DNA of 64,000 nucleotides. Origin: Alicyclobacillaceae bacterium. Its GTDB lineage: Bacteria; Bacillota; Bacilli; Kyrpidiales; Kyrpidiaceae. The stretch is taken from positions 6,079-70,078 of the forward strand of contig JASBVN010000036.1 in NCBI GenBank assembly GCA_029961045.1. The letters are read 5' to 3'. The translations under genes and the position numbers were made by a program. How positions within the stretch are numbered: the stretch's first letter is position 1; every line of letters begins with the position of its first letter. Shown here in pieces: positions 26,173-36,796 of the stretch. The notes under the pieces are model-generated. The model did no database searches and was not told the origin of the DNA. It saw only the letters and a list, made by a program, of their open reading frames with translations.

Positions 26173-26188
26173 ACACACATATGTGTGT
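26173..26188. promoter_or_regulatory. perfect 16-bp palindrome ACACACATATGTGTGT upstream of xdhC
   Basis: Read directly from the sequence. It is flanked by a further GAGTCT...AGACTC pairing and lies ~40 nt before the xdhC GTG. Confidence 0.5.
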
Positions 26189-26228
26189 GTCGAATCAGAC
26201 TCCTGTTGCACAAAGGAGGGGACCACCC

Positions 26229-27278
26229 GTGTCACGCATCGATGAAGCGCGCGAAGTGTTCGGCCGAATGGAACAAGCCTGGTCGGACGGGGAACAATCC
26301 GCCCTCTTGACGATCACCCAAGTCAAAGGCTCCGCCTACCGCCTTCCCGGCGCCAAAATGATGATGACGGAAACCGGCAAAATGCTGGGTACACTCAGCG
26401 GCGGTTGCCTCGAATCGGATCTCTACGGATGGGCTGAAAAGGCGATCAAAGAGGGGCGGCCCCGCCTCGTCCATTACGATCTCAGTGAAAGCGAACTGTG
26501 GACCCTTGGAATCGGTTGCAAAGGAACGATGGAAGTCGCCATCTTTCCCATCCGTCCGGAAGATCCCTTTTGGCAATCGGTGCGGAAAGCTGTGGCCCGG
26601 GATCGGGTCATCTCACTGGCCATCGAATTGCCGAGCGGAATCCGCGCCGCATTTGAAGGGACGACTCCAATCGCCGGAGATGTGGACCGGTTGCCGGAAC
26701 CCGTCGTCCAGCAGTTGACAAGCCGCGTCTGGAGCCGGACGAAAGCGGAAGTGGCCGAAGTGGATGGGCGGCGTTTCTACATCGACACGATGCGGCCCAA
26801 CGAACGGTTGATCATCTGCGGCGCAGGCCACGACGCCGTACCCGTGGCGGCACTCGCCGCCAAGTGCGGATTTCGCGTCACCGTGCTGGATCCGCGCAAA
26901 GAGTTTAATGGAGCCGGCCGGTTCCCCGAGGCCGAACACCTGATCACCGAACCGGACCAAGCCGATCCCGCCCAACTCACGGACAGTTGGTGGCTGATCA
27001 TGAACCACTTGCAAATGCGCGACGAAGCGGCACTGCGTCTGGCCTTGCAGGCCAAGCCCAAATACGTGGGCGTGCTCGGCCCCTTGTCGCGGACGCTCGA
27101 GATGCTCAACCACATCGGCGCCGACATGAACAGCGGTCCGATCTACGCGCCCGTTGGACTGAACGTCGGAGCAGAAACGATCGACGAAGTGGCGGTTTCG
27201 ATCGTGTCCGAATTGCTCGCCGTGCGATCCGGCCGTTCGGGAGAACCCTTGCGCGGAAAAGAAAAAATCCACAATTGA
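26229..27278 (+). CDS. XdhC/CoxI-family molybdoenzyme maturation protein
   Basis: VKGSAYRLPGAKMMM...GTLSGGCLESDL N-terminal domain and LIICGAGHDAVP Rossmann-like domain. GTG at 26229 follows AAAGGAGGGG. Confidence 0.85.
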   Translation: MSRIDEAREVFGRMEQAWSDGEQSALLTITQVKGSAYRLPGAKMMMTETGKMLGTLSGGCLESDLYGWAEKAIKEGRPRLVHYDLSESELWTLGIGCKGTMEVAIFPIRPEDPFWQSVRKAVARDRVISLAIELPSGIRAAFEGTTPIAGDVDRLPEPVVQQLTSRVWSRTKAEVAEVDGRRFYIDTMRPNERLIICGAGHDAVPVAALAAKCGFRVTVLDPRKEFNGAGRFPEAEHLITEPDQADPAQLTDSWWLIMNHLQMRDEAALRLALQAKPKYVGVLGPLSRTLEMLNHIGADMNSGPIYAPVGLNVGAETIDEVAVSIVSELLAVRSGRSGEPLRGKEKIHN

Positions 27279-27282
27279 CGGC

Positions 27283-28410
27283 TCAGGGCGCCGCTGTTCG
27301 CAGCGCCCCGCCCGTCACCACCTTTTTCCAAGTCGCGACGTCGTGCACATCGACGAAGGCGTCGATATAGGGCAAGGCCGCCGACATCCCCGTCGACTTC
27401 GGCTCATATCCCGGTTCGCCGAGCAGGGGATTGATCCACACCACCCGCCCGACACGGGAGGCCAAATCGCGCATGGCCGAATGCAAACGCTGCGGATGAC
27501 CGGCGTCGAATCCATCCGACACGATGATGACGCACGTACGCCGGTGCAGGAGACTGGGATACCGGCGAAGCAACTGCTCCAGCGCGCCGCCGATCCTCGT
27601 GCCGCCCCGCAATCCCGGCAAATCGGAAAAGGGGATGCCCGCCACCCCTTTCCGCGCGATGAGGGACGTCACCCGCAACAGGCGGGTGGAAAAGAGAAAA
27701 ATTTGTGTGCGCGCCCGGGCGCGCGTGAACGACCAGGCGAGGGAAGTGATAAAAGGCGCATACGGCTTCATGGATCCGGAAATATCGATCATCAGGACAA
27801 TTCGCGGTTTGTCGGGACGGCGTTTGCGCATTTTGAGGACAAAGGGCTCCCCCGCACGGCGCAAGGCGCACCGCATGGTTTGGCGAAGATCGATTTTCTC
27901 CTTGCCCCGTAACCGCCACTTGCGGCCGCGCGGCGCATTCATCCTGCGAACGGCCAACCGGGTCAGCTGAACCACGTCCTTCAACACCCGCTCATCCGCC
28001 CGCAACGCAAACCGTTCGCCGTCGTCGGGATGATAACCGGCCAGAAACCCCTGCACAACATCCACCGGCGGACGCGACGCCCTTTCACCGGCACCGGCAC
28101 CGCCGGCCAACTCATCCGGTTGCAGGCGGCGCTTTTCCTCCAGGCGCACCTCCCGACCGAAAAAATATTGTTCAAACAAATTCGGAAAAATTCCCCATTC
28201 CGCCGGCGTCCGCGCATAAATGGCCCGGAACGCGCTACAGACCTCCTCCATGCAGTCCACGTTCAATTCGGCCAAGGCGGCAATCGCCGTCAACGTTTCG
28301 GGTATTCCCGCACGAAATCCGCGCTTTCGCAGCCAAGGCGCAAAGCCGATCACTTGCTTCACGATGTCGCCCGTCAAGCGGCCGAGCACTTCAGCCGTCA
28401 GGCGCTCCAT
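27283..28410 (-). CDS. coxE: VWA-domain CoxE-like protein
   Basis: MIDAS motif VLMIDISGSM, with the CoxE-like length and position after coxD. Confidence 0.8.
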   Translation of the reverse strand: MERLTAEVLGRLTGDIVKQVIGFAPWLRKRGFRAGIPETLTAIAALAELNVDCMEEVCSAFRAIYARTPAEWGIFPNLFEQYFFGREVRLEEKRRLQPDELAGGAGAGERASRPPVDVVQGFLAGYHPDDGERFALRADERVLKDVVQLTRLAVRRMNAPRGRKWRLRGKEKIDLRQTMRCALRRAGEPFVLKMRKRRPDKPRIVLMIDISGSMKPYAPFITSLAWSFTRARARTQIFLFSTRLLRVTSLIARKGVAGIPFSDLPGLRGGTRIGGALEQLLRRYPSLLHRRTCVIIVSDGFDAGHPQRLHSAMRDLASRVGRVVWINPLLGEPGYEPKSTGMSAALPYIDAFVDVHDVATWKKVVTGGALRTAAP

Positions 28411-29258
28411 AGCACATCGAGTCCCTTCTCTCGCAAGACGTCCATGTCTTCCTGAGTCTTCAACAAACATCCGAGGGTCAGCCGTATCACATCTTCATCC
28501 AATTCCTCCGCCCCCAGTTCCGTCAAGGCCTGGGCAAAATCGATGGATTCGGCCAATCCCGGGGGCTTGAGCAGCGACAACTTGCGCAGGCGCCGCACGC
28601 CGCGCGCCACTTGCTTGGCCAGTTGGGGGGCAATCTCCGGGACGTGCAAGGAGATGATGTCCGCTTCTTGTTCCAGCGACGGGTAATCGACCCAAACGTA
28701 CAGACAACGGCGGCGCAAAGCGTCCGACAAATCGCGCGTGCGATTGGACGTCAAGATCACAATGGGCGGCTCGTCGGCGCGAAATGTCCCCATCTCGGGA
28801 ATGGTAATTTGAAATTCCGACAGAAATTCTAACAACAACGCCTCAAATTCCTCGTCGGCGCGGTCCACTTCGTCGATCAACAGGACGGGCGCCGGCCTCT
28901 CCCTCAGTGCCCGCAAAAGCGGCCGTTCGATCAGAAACGGCTCACTGTAAAGCGCCGCCTGGTTCACGGCGCCATCGGCCAATGCCGTGCGCGCCATCAG
29001 CAACTGTTTGGGGTAATCCCAATCGTACAGCGCCTGACTCGCGTCCAACCCTTCATAGCACTGCAAGCGGACCAGGTTCACGGAACGAACGGTGGCGAGG
29101 GCTTTAGCCAGTGCCGTTTTTCCCACACCTGCAGGGCCTTCCAACAACAACGGACGGGCCAGCCGCTGCGCTAAGTACAATACAGTGGCCAGCCCTTCCT
29201 CCGCCACATAGTGGGCACGGCGCAATTCCTCCTGCAGTCGGCGCACCTGTTCGTTCAT
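28398..29258 (-). CDS. coxD: MoxR-type AAA+ ATPase CoxD
   Basis: Walker A LLEGPAGVGKT and Walker B VLLIDEVDRA. The ATG at 29258 follows GGAGGAGGAA. Confidence 0.85.
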   Translation of the reverse strand: MNEQVRRLQEELRRAHYVAEEGLATVLYLAQRLARPLLLEGPAGVGKTALAKALATVRSVNLVRLQCYEGLDASQALYDWDYPKQLLMARTALADGAVNQAALYSEPFLIERPLLRALRERPAPVLLIDEVDRADEEFEALLLEFLSEFQITIPEMGTFRADEPPIVILTSNRTRDLSDALRRRCLYVWVDYPSLEQEADIISLHVPEIAPQLAKQVARGVRRLRKLSLLKPPGLAESIDFAQALTELGAEELDEDVIRLTLGCLLKTQEDMDVLREKGLDVLWSA

Positions 29259-29283
29259 CCGTTCCTCCTCCACTTCGGTCCGT

Positions 29284-29778
29284 TCAACCTTCGTCCGACG
29301 CCGCTTTCTCCGCTACCGCGGCCCTCGTTTCCTTCGACAGGACATTCAGCGCATTCTTCAGATTGGTGAAGACCTTTTCTGTAATTTTCCGCGCCTCTCC
29401 ATCGATCAAACGTCCTCCGAGACTGGCGATCGGCCCGCTGACCACCGCGTCGCACCGCCATTTCATGTGGGTTCCGCCATCCACGTCGCTGAGCGACATT
29501 TCGGCCTTCATATCGACCCCGCTGCCCATTCCGCCGCCGCGAATCGCCAGTGAAGCCGCCGCCCCCGGTTCCGTCACGGTTAATTCGCAGGTGAGATCAA
29601 ACTTGCCGCGCACGGGTCCCACGCCGACCCTCACCAAAGTGCGAAAACGATTTTCACTCTCCACGTTCAATTCGATTAAATCGGGAATGCACGTGCCCAT
29701 TTTATGAGGATCCGTGACAAACGCCCAAACGGTCTCCCTCGGCCGATCAATTGTAAATTCTCCCTCGTATGTCCGCAT
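29284..29778 (-). CDS. coxG: SRPBCC-fold CoxG protein
   Basis: MRTYEGEFTIDRPRETVWAFVTDPHKMGTCIPD... is a typical CoxG N-terminus. GAGAGGAGG RBS. Confidence 0.8.
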   Translation of the reverse strand: MRTYEGEFTIDRPRETVWAFVTDPHKMGTCIPDLIELNVESENRFRTLVRVGVGPVRGKFDLTCELTVTEPGAAASLAIRGGGMGSGVDMKAEMSLSDVDGGTHMKWRCDAVVSGPIASLGGRLIDGEARKITEKVFTNLKNALNVLSKETRAAVAEKAASDEG

Positions 29779-29849: not shown

Positions 29850-30863
29850 TCACGCATGACTGTGCACATACTTTTCCGGATCGCGCGCAAAGCGATCCCG
29901 GCAGCCGGAGCAGCAAAAGCCGTAGGTCGTTCCGTCCCATTCAAGACGGTAGGGAGACGTCGCCAAGTCTACCGTCATCCCGCAGACCGGATCGACGACT
30001 TGCCTGCGCACCTCCCCACCTCCGTCATGGACCGGCAATTCCAACGAGCCCGAGGTTTTCTCCGGCGGTCGCCCCTCCCAGCGCGCACGCCCATTCCGGC
30101 GCCGGCGTTCCACGAGCTGCGCCAGAATACTGAGAGCGATCTCTTGCGGCCCCACGGCGCCGATATCAAACCCCGCGGGCGCGGTGATGAATTCGATCAA
30201 TTCCCTCGGCGCACCCGCCTCCGCCAGCCCGGTGCGCACCGTCGCCCAGCGCTTCGGACTGGCGACCAATCCGAGATACCGCAGCGGCAAATCGGCGAGC
30301 GCCATCAATCCCTCGACATCGTACAGGCCCATCGTGGCCACCACGCCGTACATCCCCGTCTTGGCGCGGACGGACAGTTGGCGGCGCAGCCTCGTCAGCG
30401 GATCATCCGCACTCCTTCCGGGCCCCGCTTCTTCCAGCGAGATCCGGTGCGGCGCAAACGACAACCGGGGCGCCAATTCTTCCAGCGCGCGCGCAATCGG
30501 GGAATGCCCCACAATGATCAACAGGGGATCCACATTTCTGGGCTCCAGGAACAGTTCCACCGTTCCCTCGGAGGAGCAGGTCATCGGCAGGACCGTCACA
30601 CCTTCTTCCACGTCGGCAGGCGGCTGCGGCGTCACCAGCACGAGTTTGCTTTCGCCGGTGTTCAGGCAGTCCTGCGCTTGGCCGATGACCAGTTCCCGCG
30701 TACAGTGGCCTCCGACAAACCCTTCCATCTCGCCGTCCGCCGTGACAATCGCTTTATCGCCTACCGCCGCCGAACTCGGCCGCACGCGGCGAACCACCGT
30801 CACCATCACATACGGTTCCGCCCGTTCGTCCAATTTCCGCACCGTTTCCCAGAAATGATTCAT
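29850..30863 (-). CDS. XdhC/CoxF-like maturation protein fused to a C-terminal YHS (TRASH-like) metal-binding domain
   Basis: XdhC N and Rossmann-like parts (VMVTVVRRVRPSS..., LLIIVGHSPIARAL). The C-terminus DPVCGMTVDLATSPYRLEWDGTTYGFCCSGCRDRFARDPEKYV is a YHS pattern. The start is uncertain because the RBS is weak. Confidence 0.8.
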   Translation of the reverse strand: MNHFWETVRKLDERAEPYVMVTVVRRVRPSSAAVGDKAIVTADGEMEGFVGGHCTRELVIGQAQDCLNTGESKLVLVTPQPPADVEEGVTVLPMTCSSEGTVELFLEPRNVDPLLIIVGHSPIARALEELAPRLSFAPHRISLEEAGPGRSADDPLTRLRRQLSVRAKTGMYGVVATMGLYDVEGLMALADLPLRYLGLVASPKRWATVRTGLAEAGAPRELIEFITAPAGFDIGAVGPQEIALSILAQLVERRRRNGRARWEGRPPEKTSGSLELPVHDGGGEVRRQVVDPVCGMTVDLATSPYRLEWDGTTYGFCCSGCRDRFARDPEKYVHSHA

Positions 30864-30872
30864 CCTTTCGAC

Positions 30873-30893
30873 CCGGCGGCCTAAGGCCGCCGG
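30873..30893 (-). other. intercistronic perfect hairpin between coxL and the coxF-like gene
   Basis: CCGGCGGCC-TAA-GGCCGCCGG is a 9-bp perfect stem. Confidence 0.4.
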
Positions 30894-30929: not shown

Positions 30930-33281
30930 TCATTCTTCAATCCCGTGCTCCCTCAAAATGCTCCACACCTTCCACGGATAAATCGGCATGTCGATGTGCT
31001 CCACGCCCAGGGGAGACAGGGCATCCACCACCGCATTGACAAACGCCGCGGGAGAACCGACATTCGGCGACTCGCCCACCCCTTTCGCGCCGATCGGATG
31101 GTGCGGAGACGGCGTCACCGTCCGGTCCGTTTCCCATTTCGGGGTGTCGAGGGAAGTGGGAACCAGATAGTCCATCCAGTTCGGCGCGAGACAGTTGCCG
31201 TCCGCGTCATACGGAATGTCTTGCATGAACGCGATCGCAAACCCCTCTGTGAGCCCCCCGTGCACTTGTCCTTCGACGATCATGGGATTGATCACATTGC
31301 CGCAATCATCGACGGCCAAGAAACGCCGCACCTTGACGGCCCCCGTGCCCTTGTCGATATCGACCACCGCGATGTAAGCACCGTTTGGAAAGGTGAGGTT
31401 TGGAGGATTGTAGTAGTACGTCGCTTCCAAACCCGGTTCCATACCTTCTGGCACATTCGTATATGCGGCAAGGGCCACATCTTTCATCGTGACCGACCGG
31501 CCGGGCAGCCCCTTCGCGGAAAAGGAAGTGCCGTCCCACACCACATCGTCTTCGCCGACTTCCAACAAATGAGCGGCGATTTTGCGCGCCTTTTCGCGAA
31601 TCCTGCGCCCGCAGAGGGCCGCCGCCGCGCCGGCCGTCGGCGTGGAACGGCTGCCGTACGTGCCCAACCCGTAGGGAGCCGTGTCGGTATCGCCTTCTTC
31701 GATCAACACGTCATCCGCGCTGAGTCCCAGCTCTTCCGCGATAATTTGAGCGAAGGTCGTTTCGTGTCCCTGCCCCTGATGCCGCACGCCGAGCCGCGCG
31801 ATCACTTTGCCGGTCGGATGGACGCGGATCTCCGCGCTGTCGAACATCTTGATGCCGAGGATGTCGAAGCTGTGGGCCGGACCGGCTCCGACAATTTCGG
31901 TGAAAGTCGAAATGCCGATTCCCATGAATTCTCCCCGGGCCCGCTTTTCCGCCTGCTCTTTGCGCAATTCATCGTACCCGATGCGTTCCAGCGCGAGCTT
32001 CAGCGTTTTTTCGTAATCTCCGCTGTCGTAGACCCATCCGGTCGGGCAGCGATACGGGAACTGCTCCTTCCGAATGAAATTGCGCAGGCGCAATTCGGCC
32101 GGGTCCATCTGCAACCGGCGGGCCAATATGTCCACCACTCGTTCGATCAGGTACGAGGCTTCCGTGACGCGGAAAGAACAGCGGTATGCCACACCGCCCG
32201 GGGGCTTATTCGTATGGACGCCGTCCACCTCGACGAAGGCCGCTTTGAAATCATACGATCCTGTCACAATGCTGAACAGCCCCGCAGGGTATTTGGTCGG
32301 ATTGGCTGTGGCATCAAACGCCCCGTGGTCGGCGATCGTCTTCACGCGGAGCGCCAGCATCTTGCCGTCCTCCGTCGCCGCAATCTCCGCGGTCATGTGG
32401 TAATCGCGGGCGAAATGGGTGCTGGCGATGTTTTCCGTCCGCGTCTCAATCCACTTCACAGGCACTCCCAACTTCATGGAAGCGACAATCGCGCACACGT
32501 AACCGGGATAGATGGGGACTTTGTTGCCGAACCCACCGCCCACATCGGGGGAAATGACGTGAATCTGATGTTCGGGGAACCCCGTCACCATCGCGATCGC
32601 CGTCCGGTGGACGTGGGGCGCCTGGGAAGTGACATAAAAAGTCAACCTGCCCGTCGCGGAATTGTAGTCGGCCACGCACCCGCACGGTTCGAGCGGCGAA
32701 GGATGGACGCGCTGGAAGCGCACATCTTGTTTGACGACAACCGGCGCGTCGCGGAAAATCGCTTCGGTTTCCTCGCGGTCTCCCGCCTCCCAATGCCAGA
32801 TGTGATTCGATTTTTTCTCCTTGTCTTCGCGGAGAATGGGAGCGTCCGGCTCGAGGGCCTTGAACGGGTCCACCACAGCCGGCAAGGGTTCATAATCGAC
32901 TTCAATCAATTGAATCGCGTCCTCTGCCTGTGCGCGCGTCTCTGCGACAACCGCAGCGACCTCTTGGTATTGAAACAAGACTTTGCCCGTGGCCAACACC
33001 ATCTGCTGGTCTCCCGCCAGGGTCGGCATCCAGGCGAGGTTCATCTTGGCCAAATCCTCTCCCGTCATCACCAGCTTGACCCCCGGTGCGGCCTGGGCAG
33101 CGGACGTATCGATGCGGCGAATGCGCGCGTGCGCATACGGACTCCGCAAGATGCAGAGATAGAGCATATTCGGCAACATAATGTCGTCCACATACCGGCC
33201 TTTTCCACGGATCAGCCGCGGATCTTCCTTGCGGAGAATCGATTTACCCATCGGTCGCAATTCAGTCTGCGGCAGTGCCAC
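30930..33281 (-). CDS. coxL: aerobic carbon monoxide dehydrogenase large (Mo-Cu) subunit, form I
   Basis: The form-I active-site signature VAYRCSFR is present ([16 protein letters not shown]), plus [20 protein letters not shown] and [14 protein letters not shown] at 33281 lies 6 nt after GGGGAGGTGG; an alternative ATG lies at 33251. Confidence 0.9.
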
Positions 33282-33777
33282 TGGTAGCCACCTCCCCCAT
33301 TGCTTTCCCGGTTTCACCCGCCATTTTGCGAGCAGCCGATTGAACGGCCTTGACGATATTCATATATCCCGTGCAACGGCAGACGTTTCCGGAAAGTCCC
33401 TCGCGAATCTCCTCCTCCGTCGGCATCGGATTGTCCTGCAACAAGGCGTAGGAAGCCATGAGCATGCCGGGTGTGCAATAACCGCAATGGAGCGCGTGCT
33501 CTTCCCAAAACGCGCTCTGCAACGGGTGCAGTTCACCGTCCTTTTCCAGCCCTTCAACGGTCAACACTTCGCAACCATCGGCTTGCACCGCCAGTACGGT
33601 GCACGACTTGACCGCTTTCCCGTCCAACAGCACCGTGCAGGCGCCGCAACTGGTGGTATCACAGCCAATGTGCGTGCCCGTCAGTTTCAGTTCTTCGCGC
33701 AGAAAGTAGGCCAGCAACGTGCGCGGTTCCACATCCGCTTCGTACAGAGTCCCGTTGACTTTGACCCGGATCTTCAT
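33262..33777 (-). CDS. coxS: CO dehydrogenase small [2Fe-2S] subunit
   Basis: [11 protein letters not shown] and CGYCTPGM ... CRCTGY cysteine clusters. ATGA overlap with the coxM stop. Confidence 0.92.
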
Positions 33778-34658
33778 TGGACCCCCACCTTTCCGTGCAA
33801 CTCTTCCGCGATTTCGCGAAGTGCGCGGGCGGCAAATACGCGCAACAGATCGCGCTTATAGGCCGCGCTGCCCCGCAGGTCATCGGCGGGTTCGGCGTCT
33901 TCCGGCACCAACCTCGACGCGTTTGCGATCGTTTCCTCCGTCAGGGGTTGTCCGATGAGAGCTTTCTCCGCCCTGGCCGCTCGCAGCGGAATCGGACCGC
34001 AGGCGCAAATGCCGATCCCCGCATCGGATACGCGGCCGTCGCTCCCGAGCGCAATGTGTACAGCCAGCCCGGCAATGGCGAAATCGCCCGCCTTGCGTTC
34101 CAGTTTCATATAACGGGAAGCAGCCGGTCCGGTTGGAGACGGGAGATGCAGCGCCACGACGAGTTCATCTTCGTTCAGCGAAGTCGCAAAGGTGTCCACA
34201 AAGAAATCGTCAATGGGAATGAGCCGGTTTCCGTGCGGCCCACGCGCTTCCACCTCGGCCCTGAGCGCAATCATCGCCGTCCCCCAATCCGAAGCGGGAT
34301 CGGCGTGAACGAGCGAGCCGCCGATGGTCCCGCGGTTGCGGATCAATGGGTCGGCAATCCACCGGGCCGTGCGGGAGAGCAACGGAAAACTGTCGAAAAG
34401 TTCCGTTGCATGTTCCAATTCGGAGTGGCGCGTCATCGCCCCAATCCGCAATTTCCCGTCGACCCGGCGCCAGCCTTTGAGATCATCGATGCGGTTAATG
34501 TCGATGAGCACGGCCGGGGCTGCGATGCGTAATTTCATCATCGGCAGCAAGCTTTGGCCGCCCGCCAACACTTTGCCGTCGTAACCGTACTCGGTCATGA
34601 GGCGGATGGCCTCGTCGACCGACTCCGGGGCTTCGTACTTGAACGCATTGGGAAACAC
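33774..34658 (-). CDS. coxM: CO dehydrogenase medium FAD-binding subunit
   Basis: [31 protein letters not shown] and [16 protein letters not shown] at 34658 lies 7 nt after AAAGGAGG. Confidence 0.88.
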
Positions 34659-34798
34659 CGCGAAACCTCCTTTGTCTACCAGAGTGAGGTTGCAAGAGGT
34701 TACAAGAGGACGGGTGGCGCACTGCAATGCGAAGAATTTCCGGCTTTAAGGGCGATTTCAAGATGATAATGAAGGATATTTCTGCTTCCTGCGACCAT

Positions 34799-34910: not shown

Positions 34911-36167
34911 ATGCGTGAACCCTCGGATCACGCTGAAGTCGCGCAGATTTTGTCCGAAGCCCTGGAGCGCCTACAGCCGTGGATGGAGGCGGGACTGGAA
35001 TCCCTCTTGCAAGCGGTCGTGGACTACGCGCGCAAATTGGTGCGCGCTTCGTTTGCCGGAATCATCATTTTCGAACCGGAGGACCCGTCCACATTCCGGT
35101 ACTTTAAGGTTTCCGGATGGCATTTGAAGCCCGCCGAATTTCCGAAAGGGCACGGGATGTACTTTGTGCCGGCGAAAACCGGACACTCGCTGCGGGTCGA
35201 ATCCATTTCCGGACACCCCCTGTCCGTCGGTGTGCCGCCAAACCACCCGCCCGTCGAAGCATTGCTGGCCATCCCCTTGCGGCACCACGGCAAGCCGATG
35301 GGTTGCCTGTTTTTCGGCAAACCGCCCAAGGCAGGGGCGTTTACCGAAAACGATGAAGACATCATGAACGGGTTTGCTTCGATGTGCGCCACCGCCATTG
35401 CCTGGTGCGACCAAAAAGATGAAAACCGCTTTCAGATCATGGCGGAAGAACGGCGGCGAATTGCGGAGGAATTGCACGATTCCCTGTCGCAAACGTTGTT
35501 CGCGGTGGCGCGCGAGATCGACCGTTTGGAACGAGCCCTGCCGACGGTCGAGGAGAAAGATGAGTGGCGGGCACGTGTCGCGCGCTTGCGCGAATTGACC
35601 GAGCAATGCCAGGCGGAACTGCGCGCCATCTTATTCCGCCTCATGAACGATGAGCCAACCCCCAAAGTGACGGCCTTGACCCATCTGGTACAAGAATTTG
35701 AACGAGTGAGCGGAATTTCCACACAACTGATCACAGAGGGGAACTTCGGCCGGTTGAGCTTGCCCGTCCGCCAAACGATTCTCAAGATCATCGCGGAATC
35801 CTTGACCAATATTTACCGCCACGCAAACAGCCCAACCGCCCTCGTCCACGTGCTGGTCGGTGCCAATCAGGTCACCGTGGCCGTACAGGATGCCGGGGTC
35901 GGCATTTCCGACGAGGCCCTTCACTTGATGAACCATCCGACCGGTCACTTTGGATTGCACTCGATGGCGCGGTCCGTCGCCGATCTCAAGGGAAAGTTGG
36001 AGATTTTTCGCAATGAGGACGGGGGAACCACCGTGCGCTGCACGTTTCCGGTTCACGGAGACTCGAATCCGGAACAAAACCGGAACGACAATCTCGACTC
36101 GATTCCGGTCGGCCCGAGCCCAGTCTACGGTCCGGCTGCCGATTCGCAAAGAGGGTGGAATCCTTGA
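34911..36167 (+). CDS. soluble GAF-domain sensor histidine kinase (HisKA_3 type)
   Basis: No TM segment by eye. GAF-like N-terminal half, H-box EERRRIAEELHDSLSQTL, then N, G1 and G2 boxes (LTNIYRHANS, VQDAGVGIS, GHFGLHSM). Confidence 0.85.
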   Translation: MREPSDHAEVAQILSEALERLQPWMEAGLESLLQAVVDYARKLVRASFAGIIIFEPEDPSTFRYFKVSGWHLKPAEFPKGHGMYFVPAKTGHSLRVESISGHPLSVGVPPNHPPVEALLAIPLRHHGKPMGCLFFGKPPKAGAFTENDEDIMNGFASMCATAIAWCDQKDENRFQIMAEERRRIAEELHDSLSQTLFAVAREIDRLERALPTVEEKDEWRARVARLRELTEQCQAELRAILFRLMNDEPTPKVTALTHLVQEFERVSGISTQLITEGNFGRLSLPVRQTILKIIAESLTNIYRHANSPTALVHVLVGANQVTVAVQDAGVGISDEALHLMNHPTGHFGLHSMARSVADLKGKLEIFRNEDGGTTVRCTFPVHGDSNPEQNRNDNLDSIPVGPSPVYGPAADSQRGWNP

Positions 36168-36796
36168 CGGAGCGCATTGTCGTCGTTGACGACCACGAAC
36201 TGGTTCAGATCGGGTTGCACACCCTCCTGACCGATCGCGGGTTGGAGGTGGTTGGGCAGGCCAGCACCGGATCGGAGGGACTTGAGCTCATCCAATCTTT
36301 GCAACCGGATCTCGCCCTGATCGACGTGCGCCTGCCGGATATGAGCGGGATCGAGCTGTGCCAGTCTGTGCGGAAAACCAACCCCCACATCCGCCTGGCC
36401 GTCCTCACCGCGGCAATGGATAAAAATGTCGTCCACGCTTGCCTTCAAACAGGGGTTCAGGGCTACCTGCTGAAGGATATGCCCGGGGAAGAGTTGTTCC
36501 GGTCGATTCGCAAGATTTTGGACGGCAAATCCGTGCTCGATCCGTCCGTGACGGAGTACGCTTTGCACTGGATCGAATCACACAGGGAGAGCGAACCGTG
36601 CAAAGATGCGCTCGGCCTTCGGGATGTGGAGATCCTGCGGCTGATGGCCCAAGGGCGGACCAATCAAGAAATCGGAAGGCACTTGCACTTGTCCGAAAAC
36701 ACCGTGAAAGTCATCGTGAATGAAATCTACCGTCGCCTCGGCGTCAGGAGCCGCGTGGAAGCCGTGATGGAGGCACACCGGCGCGGATTGCTATAA
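36164..36796 (+). CDS. NarL/LuxR-family response regulator
   Basis: Receiver domain (IVVVDDHELV ... LALIDVRLPDMSG) and HTH (LGLRDVEILRLMAQGRTNQEIGRHLHLSENTVKV). The TTG at 36164 overlaps the kinase stop (TTGA); an alternative GTG lies at 36155. Confidence 0.88.
   Translation: MTERIVVVDDHELVQIGLHTLLTDRGLEVVGQASTGSEGLELIQSLQPDLALIDVRLPDMSGIELCQSVRKTNPHIRLAVLTAAMDKNVVHACLQTGVQGYLLKDMPGEELFRSIRKILDGKSVLDPSVTEYALHWIESHRESEPCKDALGLRDVEILRLMAQGRTNQEIGRHLHLSENTVKVIVNEIYRRLGVRSRVEAVMEAHRRGLL

Follow-up and report, generated by a model that had tools for sequence, protein, structure and literature searches.

Much of the atmospheric CO that bacteria consume is oxidized by aerobic carbon monoxide dehydrogenase (CODH). 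Here we analyze coxF-YHS, a gene in the CODH (cox) cluster of a 64,000-nucleotide stretch of DNA from an Alicyclobacillaceae bacterium (GenBank assembly GCA_029961045.1, contig JASBVN010000036.1, positions 6,079 to 70,078 of the forward strand), which we refer to as the window and whose own numbering is used throughout. The product of this gene joins an XdhC-family body to a C-terminal YHS domain and is almost certainly the counterpart of the CODH maturation factor CoxF, equipped with a true YHS domain. Judging from the sequences compared, this XdhC-YHS fusion is the usual architecture of CoxF outside the Alphaproteobacteria. Both of its parts belong to known families. As to function, we lean, with slightly more than even confidence, towards capture and delivery of Cu(I) by CoxF through its YHS domain, a role suggested by the ligands, relatives and genomic context discussed below.

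The CoxF-YHS protein

The gene and the domains of its product are as follows.

29850..30863, minus strand: coxF-YHS gene, 337 amino acids plus stop; maturation factor of the CoxF type (XdhC family) that ends in a YHS domain (open reading frame and translation, Pfam, reciprocal BLASTP, tree).
30639..30827, minus strand: XdhC_CoxI N-terminal domain, residues 13-75 (PF02625, 57.0 bits, cut-off 24.3), with the GGxC motif that contains Cys54.
30114..30521, minus strand: XdhC_C Rossmann-like domain, residues 115-250 (PF13478, 69.2 bits, cut-off 29.7).
30000..30113, minus strand: linker, residues 251-288, an Arg-rich helix end followed by a variable low-complexity stretch (AlphaFold2 (AF2) disorder at residues 270-285).
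29862..29999, minus strand: YHS domain, residues 289-334 (PF04945, 56.8 bits, cut-off 30.3, E 2.3e-15, profile positions 1-45 of 47).

The frame is continuous from an ATG at 30863 to the stop codon at 29850-29852; a longer frame that opens at a TTG and reaches 30914 would add 17 residues, and homologues begin at the ATG. An earlier note, made by reading the DNA alone, had described an XdhC-like body directly after coxL whose last ~45 residues follow the YHS pattern, and had proposed a domain profile search as a check. All three Pfam domains score above their curated gathering thresholds: the body resolves into XdhC_CoxI and XdhC_C and is assigned to CoxF by BLASTP and the tree presented below, the tail matches PF04945 and holds a ligand set of one Asp and three Cys, and coxL is indeed the neighbor, at 30930-33317 on the minus strand. 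In a genome-wide profile scan the YHS domain scored 60.6 bits. The C-terminal sequence DPVCGMTVDLATSPYRLEWDGTTYGFCCSGCRDRFARDPEKYV (residues 291-333) is laid out as D291-P-V-C294-G-M296, 22 residues and then F316-C317-C318-S-G-C321; the tail also has sub-threshold Pfam matches to TRASH and zf-FCS, and the protein has no Pfam match to HMA (PF00403).

Within the body, Cys54 of the GGxC motif is invariant in an alignment of 35 sequences (34-73% identity) as well as in 82 CoxF sequences, and a second invariant motif, M94-T95-C96-x-S98-x-G100, lies just ahead of the XdhC_C domain, so that the pair formed by Cys54 (GGxC) and Cys96 (xC-x-S-x-G) is kept in every CoxF compared. The AF2 model of the body has a predicted local distance difference test score (pLDDT) above 90 and matches the XdhC structures 2WE8 and 3ON5 in Foldseek.

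A counterpart of CoxF rather than of CoxI or canonical XdhC

Against the proteins of Oligotropha (Afipia) carboxidovorans pHCG3, CoxF-YHS matches CoxF with 111 bits (35% identity over 265 amino acids) and CoxI with 25 bits, and reciprocal BLAST rules out a CoxI role. The second XdhC-family protein of the window shows the opposite preference, with 82 bits over its full length to O. carboxidovorans CoxI versus 53 bits over part of its length to CoxF. A maximum-likelihood tree, built on XdhC bodies alone with the YHS columns removed and rooted with two CoxI-type outgroups, separates 82 CoxF-like sequences from those outgroups with support of 99/98. The match to CoxF and the split from the CoxI type thus identify CoxF-YHS as the CoxF counterpart and the plain XdhC protein encoded next door as a CoxI-like paralogue. 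We also tried the canonical or AOR-type XdhC families and ruled them out (26.8 bits versus 161.6 for TIGR02964 and 66.6 versus 350 for NF045664).

Occurrence of the fusion

The genome is a 55-contig draft of about 80% completeness, and the earlier note had raised the possibility that a frameshift or misassembly joined an xdhC gene to a small YHS gene. Nothing was seen in favor of this artefact; we rule it out and give it a negligible probability. Relatives at 35-73% identity keep the length and all three domains, which excludes a frameshift or assembly join. A single frame of much the same length recurs in all of the 16 related genomes that have form-I coxL, complete ones included, and across many phyla at 31-73% identity. 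Among the 120 best matches in a collection of 5.8 billion proteins, 119 carry PF04945 together with both XdhC domains, the exception being a 204-residue fragment; they include proteins from Alicyclobacillus, Bacillus methanolicus, Geobacillus, Hydrogenibacillus, Polycladomyces and Chloroflexota.

The distribution extends well beyond these relatives. We scanned one genome per species with patterns of the XdhC body and collected 80 CoxF loci from at least 12 phyla, 68 of which have a YHS tail. The YHS-bearing loci come from Bacillota, Chloroflexota, Acidobacteriota, Actinomycetota, Bacteroidota, Gemmatimonadota, Myxococcota, Rokubacteria/Methylomirabilota, Burkholderiales, Fidelibacterota and Thermoplasmatota, the last represented by a Thermoplasmata archaeon. 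Complete plasmids of Thermomicrobium roseum, Natronorubrum bangense, Deinococcus and Paraburkholderia aromaticivorans carry the fusion, which lies in a cox cluster wherever this was checked. In Actinomycetes, a CoxF-like gene is present in 69 of 301 genomes, and 28 of the 30 best loci have the YHS domain.

The fusion had been thought undescribed. In this the literature agrees, since full-text searches of openly accessible literature found no paper linking CoxF or XdhC with YHS or TRASH, and a preprint on Parageobacillus sp. G301, which has the same gene order, calls the gene simply CoxF. It is not rare, however, and is already present in public databases under generic names ("XdhC family protein" or "YHS domain-containing protein" at NCBI).

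A further elaboration occurs in Chloroflexota (Anaerolineae, Ardenticatenaceae), where CoxF proteins with two tandem YHS domains are found (P0074, P0079, P0080, P0099, P0100, P0114, P0115, P0118).

Linkage to form-I coxL

A CoxL homologue at 56-73% identity is encoded in 71 of the 80 loci, with the active-site loop [AS]Y[RA]CSFR wherever this region is covered. The other nine loci lie at contig edges and have coxD, coxE or coxG where flanking sequence exists. The Bacteroidota locus L059 has coxE and no coxL within about 7 kb. The order of the cox genes varies (M-S-L-F, L-G-D-E-F, xdhC-F-D-E-M-S-L), with coxF always inside the cluster.

The earlier note had proposed asking whether the fusion tracks form-I coxL, and a survey of the window's own class, covering 301 genomes and taking form-I as a CoxL above the TIGR02416 cut-off, answers that it does. 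In all 16 genomes with a form-I CoxL, among them complete single-contig genomes, and only in these, a CoxF match extends to residue 333 or beyond and lies on the same contig, a few hundred bases from coxL, versus no intact CoxF-YHS in the 31 genomes holding only CoxL-like genes below the cut-off (form II and others).

Two further loci touch on this linkage. In a genome of the same family without form-I CoxL we found a remnant of coxF-YHS (G021:C1:2835865-2836602) that covers residues 89-336 at 68% identity and is interrupted by a TGA, apparently a maturation factor decaying together with the lost enzyme. The window's own genome holds a second CoxL-like gene (G000:C6:524-2806; 831 bits versus the cut-off of 991), probably a form-II enzyme or another molybdenum hydroxylase, with no CoxF-YHS partner.

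The YHS domain and its relatives

Residues D291, P292, C294, M296, F316, C317, C321, F325 and P329 are invariant in the 35-sequence alignment. Across the 68 YHS tails, the three cysteines are invariant, the Asp is kept in 63, the Met after the first Cys in 62 and the 22-residue spacing between cysteines in 64, whereas the fourth cysteine (C318) is variable. This fits the general YHS ligand pattern, D/C-x2-C...C-x3-C with a spacer of about 19-22 residues, and Asp291, Cys294, Cys317 and Cys321, with Met296 nearby, are predicted to make up a thiolate metal site. When CoxF itself is left aside, the most similar YHS domains (52-62% identity) lie at the N-termini of P-type ATPases. Neighboring these ATPase genes are cueR or genes for a multicopper oxidase, for a four-helix-bundle copper protein or for a CsoR-like regulator. 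It is this combination of conserved ligands and P-type ATPase relatives in copper-resistance loci that makes copper(I) delivery the best reading of the domain.

Solved relatives are the YHS modules in the alpha subunits of phenol, toluene and xylene monooxygenases together with ribosomal protein L24e, and the module of phenol hydroxylase presumably binds Zn through four cysteines. In L24e, Cd is held by four cysteines (PMC4626032). The AF2 model of the CoxF domain, with a pLDDT of 91-96, reproduces the YHS fold of two beta-hairpin knuckles and a C-terminal helix and superposes on the toluene/o-xylene monooxygenase (ToMO) and phenol hydroxylase modules at 0.7 Å over 28-30 residues, with a probability of 0.96-0.99 and E-values that are weak, the domain being short; the match to L24e is weaker. 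Searches of the PDB found no copper-bound YHS structure and no structure of the CoxF type. The only other YHS domain in the window's own genome is of the hydroxylase type, without a known copper role: it belongs to the 502-residue alpha subunit of a soluble diiron monooxygenase (G000:C18, L084:1321-2829, minus strand; Phenol_Hydrox 190 bits, YHS 41 bits).

These structural relatives invite the reading that the domain is a structural zinc ribbon of the treble-clef kind, a docking or dimerization module for CoxL, CoxE or CoxD that carries no copper. The nearest solved relatives are modules buried in monooxygenase alpha subunits and the protein L24e, with Cd bound in the latter (PMC4626032) and none with a copper function, and the weak zf-FCS and TRASH matches point the same way. 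The CoxF domain, however, replaces a first-knuckle Cys with Asp and has a Met after the first Cys, as do the N-termini of copper ATPases and the YHS domain attached to an adenylyl cyclase of Mycobacterium phlei, on which Zn has no effect. A long disordered tether and tandem YHS domains would also be unusual for a fixed structural interface, and the Cys- and His-rich tails of YHS-less relatives described below are easier to reconcile with metal handling than with a docking surface that is fixed. We therefore consider the zinc ribbon unlikely.

The tether itself is evident in both model and alignment. The linker columns are unconserved and variable in length in the 35-sequence alignment, the gap between the EIALS motif in the body's final helix and the start of the YHS domain spanning 22-92 residues in relatives (median 33), and the pLDDT falls below 50 at residues 270-285, which indicates a flexible tether between two confidently modeled domains.

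For the P-type ATPases, copper binding by the YHS domain is putative (PMC4626032). The class III adenylyl cyclase of M. phlei is activated by Cu2+ at 1-10 µM, whereas Zn, Fe, Co, Ni and Cr do not activate it (Linder 2015; PMC4626032). The cyclase, as the one biochemically studied YHS fusion in which copper switches a catalytic domain, is also the precedent for a different role, in which the YHS domain would be a copper sensor gating the activity of CoxF or its interaction with CoxD or CoxE, and not a copper donor. CoxF has no known enzymatic activity to switch, tandem YHS domains and Cys tails fit capacity or delivery better, and coxF is genetically needed for copper insertion itself (PMC4240915), for which delivery is the simpler explanation; we hold a sensor to be quite improbable.

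CoxF proteins with altered or missing YHS domains

All ten alphaproteobacterial CoxF proteins, including that of O. carboxidovorans, have no YHS domain. On the tree they form a single clade (100/99) nested within YHS-bearing sequences, the supports enclosing it being 56-92, and the whole tree needs only four changes of state. The most parsimonious interpretation of this topology is that the YHS domain was lost in the alphaproteobacterial lineage. The other YHS-less CoxF proteins are isolated cases.

Several of these proteins have other potential ligands at the C-terminus. YHS-less CoxF proteins encoded beside form-I coxL end in Cys tails in a myxobacterium (L053:9977-10903, ...KGSCCHG) and in Actinomadura (L079:9920-10744, the same as L087, ...GGGHCCG), and another ends in ...GSRCSEG (L092); these tails may be alternative thiol metal sites in the same position. 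Two Actinomycetes proteins that have the YHS domain carry His-rich additions reminiscent of the His tracts of metallochaperones, in one as a linker EPDEHHDHGAEHGDEHPGHAHPE ahead of the domain (L096) and in the other as an extension SESHDHTDLHPHGAP after it (L106). Such Cys-rich and His-rich alternatives at the C-terminus of CoxF suggest a metal-handling role through thiol or imidazole groups. We looked for an anticorrelation between the YHS domain and an internal M-C-x-x-H motif in YHS-less CoxF and found none, the alphaproteobacterial proteins keeping only C-P-S.

Two variants stand apart. In locus L020 a Cys takes the place of the Asp (CLPCGM), giving a four-Cys site. In an acidobacteriotal locus (L056:9929-11836) a CoxF-like frame of 629 amino acids without YHS runs into CoxD-like sequence, which could reflect a genuine fusion or deletion or else a frameshift from sequencing.

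A proposed model for copper delivery

In O. carboxidovorans the [CuSMoO2] site depends genetically on both CoxF and CoxE for its copper, as seen for CoxF in the F::km mutant: coxE and coxF mutants produce a fully folded CODH that contains Mo and sulfane sulfur and no Cu, and treatment with Cu(I)-thiourea reconstitutes this enzyme chemically (PMC4240915). Copper handling by CoxF was ascribed in 2014 to short motifs of the O. carboxidovorans protein, namely MCPSHGTM, a "phytase" motif RHGQRQS (RHGxRxP) and RGD (PMC4240915). As candidates for copper handling in CoxF-YHS these motifs were rejected, since only the Cys of MCPSHGTM is kept, RHG is replaced by RRN and RGD is absent. Nor are they family-wide, RGD occurring in 13 and RHGxRx[PS] in 2 of 83 CoxF sequences.

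We propose that the YHS domain would capture cytoplasmic Cu(I), for example from a CopZ-like donor, and would then swing on its tether of ~35 residues to pass the copper to Cys54/Cys96 of the body or directly into the active-site funnel of CoxL. The target would be the sulfurated Mo site under the Cys of the AYRCSFR loop in folded apo-CoxL, and CoxD and CoxE would assist as in the published model. CoxF would thus have its own copper chaperone built in. A CopZ-like open frame of 79 residues, its HMA domain standing alone, is present in the genome, as are two ATPase-sized frames that bear HMA domains.

The cysteines of the tail might instead serve as a persulfide relay for sulfuration of the Mo site, protecting or delivering the sulfido ligand in an XdhC-like way, with no binding of metal. 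XdhC proteins do work with cysteine desulfurases and protect the sulfurated cofactor, and CODH from coxE and coxF mutants contains heterogeneous sulfur species (PMC4240915). Sulfuration in O. carboxidovorans is, however, assigned to CoxD, and the enzyme of the coxF mutant keeps its sulfane sulfur (PMC4240915). YHS/TRASH is moreover a metal-binding fold with fixed Asp/Cys geometry and no known persulfide role, and the closest relatives of this domain sit on copper pumps. We regard a persulfide relay as highly improbable.

Several observations weigh against copper delivery by the YHS domain. No copper role is known for the YHS modules of diiron hydroxylases, and the four-Cys relatives of the fold have been reported with Cd or Zn. 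The AF2 model gives no defined docking of the YHS domain on the body (predicted template modelling score 0.67). Four Bacteroidota loci (L021, L035, L050, L059) read NPVCG[VI] or NPVC[NQ]I, with Asn for Asp and Val or Ile for Met. The sole CoxF studied at the bench lacks the domain, which is thus not universally required, and the reading of its absence as loss depends on a root placed by long-branched outgroups and on branch supports in an intermediate range (56-92).

With these points taken into account, we still prefer copper delivery. The broader proposition, that Mo-Cu CODH assembly acquires its Cu(I) at the tethered YHS domain and that the YHS-bearing protein is the ancestral and predominant form of CoxF, is one on which we are evenly balanced. 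If it holds, the O. carboxidovorans protein is a derived, YHS-less CoxF, which would explain why its copper site stayed speculative; the YHS-type CoxF would be the first defined copper insertase for a molybdenum enzyme, and the reported difficulty of producing copper-loaded CODH heterologously might be explained as well. The published copper model rests on short motifs of one alphaproteobacterial CoxF that are not conserved. A metal domain of the copper-pump type that is present on CoxF in most lineages, and only with form-I coxL, offers independent genomic support for CoxF as the copper donor. The tethered domain also gives mutagenesis specific residues to target and provides a small soluble unit for assays, and YHS-type CoxF proteins of thermophiles may serve as parts for active Mo-Cu CODH in heterologous hosts.

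The cox cluster of the window

The minus-strand cluster has the order coxM-coxS-coxL-coxF-coxG-coxD-coxE, with coxF-YHS as the fourth gene, and a second XdhC-family gene on the plus strand converges on it.

33774..34727, minus strand: coxM, FAD-binding (flavin adenine dinucleotide) medium subunit (Pfam FAD_binding_5 and CO_deh_flav_C).
33262..33777, minus strand: coxS, [2Fe-2S] small subunit (Pfam Fer2_2 and Fer2).
30930..33317 (longest frame), minus strand: coxL, large subunit of form-I Mo-Cu CO dehydrogenase (TIGR02416, 1280 bits, cut-off 991).
29284..29778, minus strand: coxG, SRPBCC (Pfam COXG, 107 bits).
28398..29273, minus strand: coxD, MoxR-type AAA+ ATPase (Pfam AAA_5, AAA and AAA_3; position as in other cox clusters).
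27283..28470, minus strand: coxE, VWA-domain protein (Pfam VWA_CoxE, 160 bits).
26181..27278, plus strand: second XdhC-family gene without YHS, CoxI-like paralogue (Pfam, BLASTP preference for CoxI, outgroup in trees).

The CoxL active-site loop carries VAYRCSFR. The true start of coxL is likely the ATG at 33251, 10 nt past the coxS stop, and that of coxM is probably downstream of the TTG at 34727. The CoxI-like paralogue is a probable chaperone of the molybdenum cofactor. Flanking the cluster are genes for MoaA, a MocA-like nucleotidyltransferase and a GAF histidine kinase/NarL pair.

The 66-nt spacer between coxL, whose stop codon is at 30930-30932, and coxF contains a perfect 9-bp GC-rich inverted repeat in the minus-strand RNA, CCGGCGGCC-TTA-GGCCGCCGG (30873-30893). 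It lies between a GGAGGAGGGG stretch and the coxF ATG at 30863, is followed by no T-run and could be an intercistronic hairpin for stability or control of translation.

On the megaplasmid of T. roseum (L082) the XdhC-YHS gene is the sole accessory gene adjoining coxMSL. A GAF histidine kinase and a NarL-type regulator are encoded upstream there, and the same pair stands beside the cox cluster of the window (34911-36796).

Comparison with known systems

The closest known system is CoxF of O. carboxidovorans OM5 (pHCG3, 280 amino acids). Both XdhC domains are present in it, it shares the invariant cysteines of GGxC and xC-x-S-x-G, and its gene likewise lies in a form-I cox cluster that contains coxD, coxE and coxG. 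It differs from the window protein in having neither a YHS domain nor a Cys at the C-terminus, and the gene order there is coxMSL-D-E-F-G versus coxMSL-F-G-D-E in the window. CoxI and the XdhC proteins of the Rv0376c type (PDB 2WE7/2WE8; BH1974, 3ON5) have the XdhC fold in common with CoxF-YHS (Foldseek E about 1e-14, TM-score about 0.48) and belong to another subfamily, of which the window has its own copy, without YHS, at 26181-27278.

Among proteins with a YHS domain, the N-terminal domains of CopA-type P-type ATPases resemble that of CoxF over about 45 residues, with the pattern DPVCGM...FC-x3-C, and differ in being part of a membrane pump, whereas the domain of CoxF is attached to a cofactor-maturation chaperone. 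The YHS domain of the M. phlei cyclase is similarly C-terminal, follows a short linker, has an Asp and three Cys and is copper-specific; it regulates an enzyme as a sensor, outside any pathway of metallocentre assembly, unlike that of CoxF. The HMA copper chaperones (CopZ/Atx1) and the built-in domains of CCS follow the same logic as that proposed here, in which a small thiolate Cu(I) site passes its metal to a target, but they have an unrelated fold; CoxF-YHS has no HMA domain, and the genome encodes its CopZ-like protein in a separate gene.

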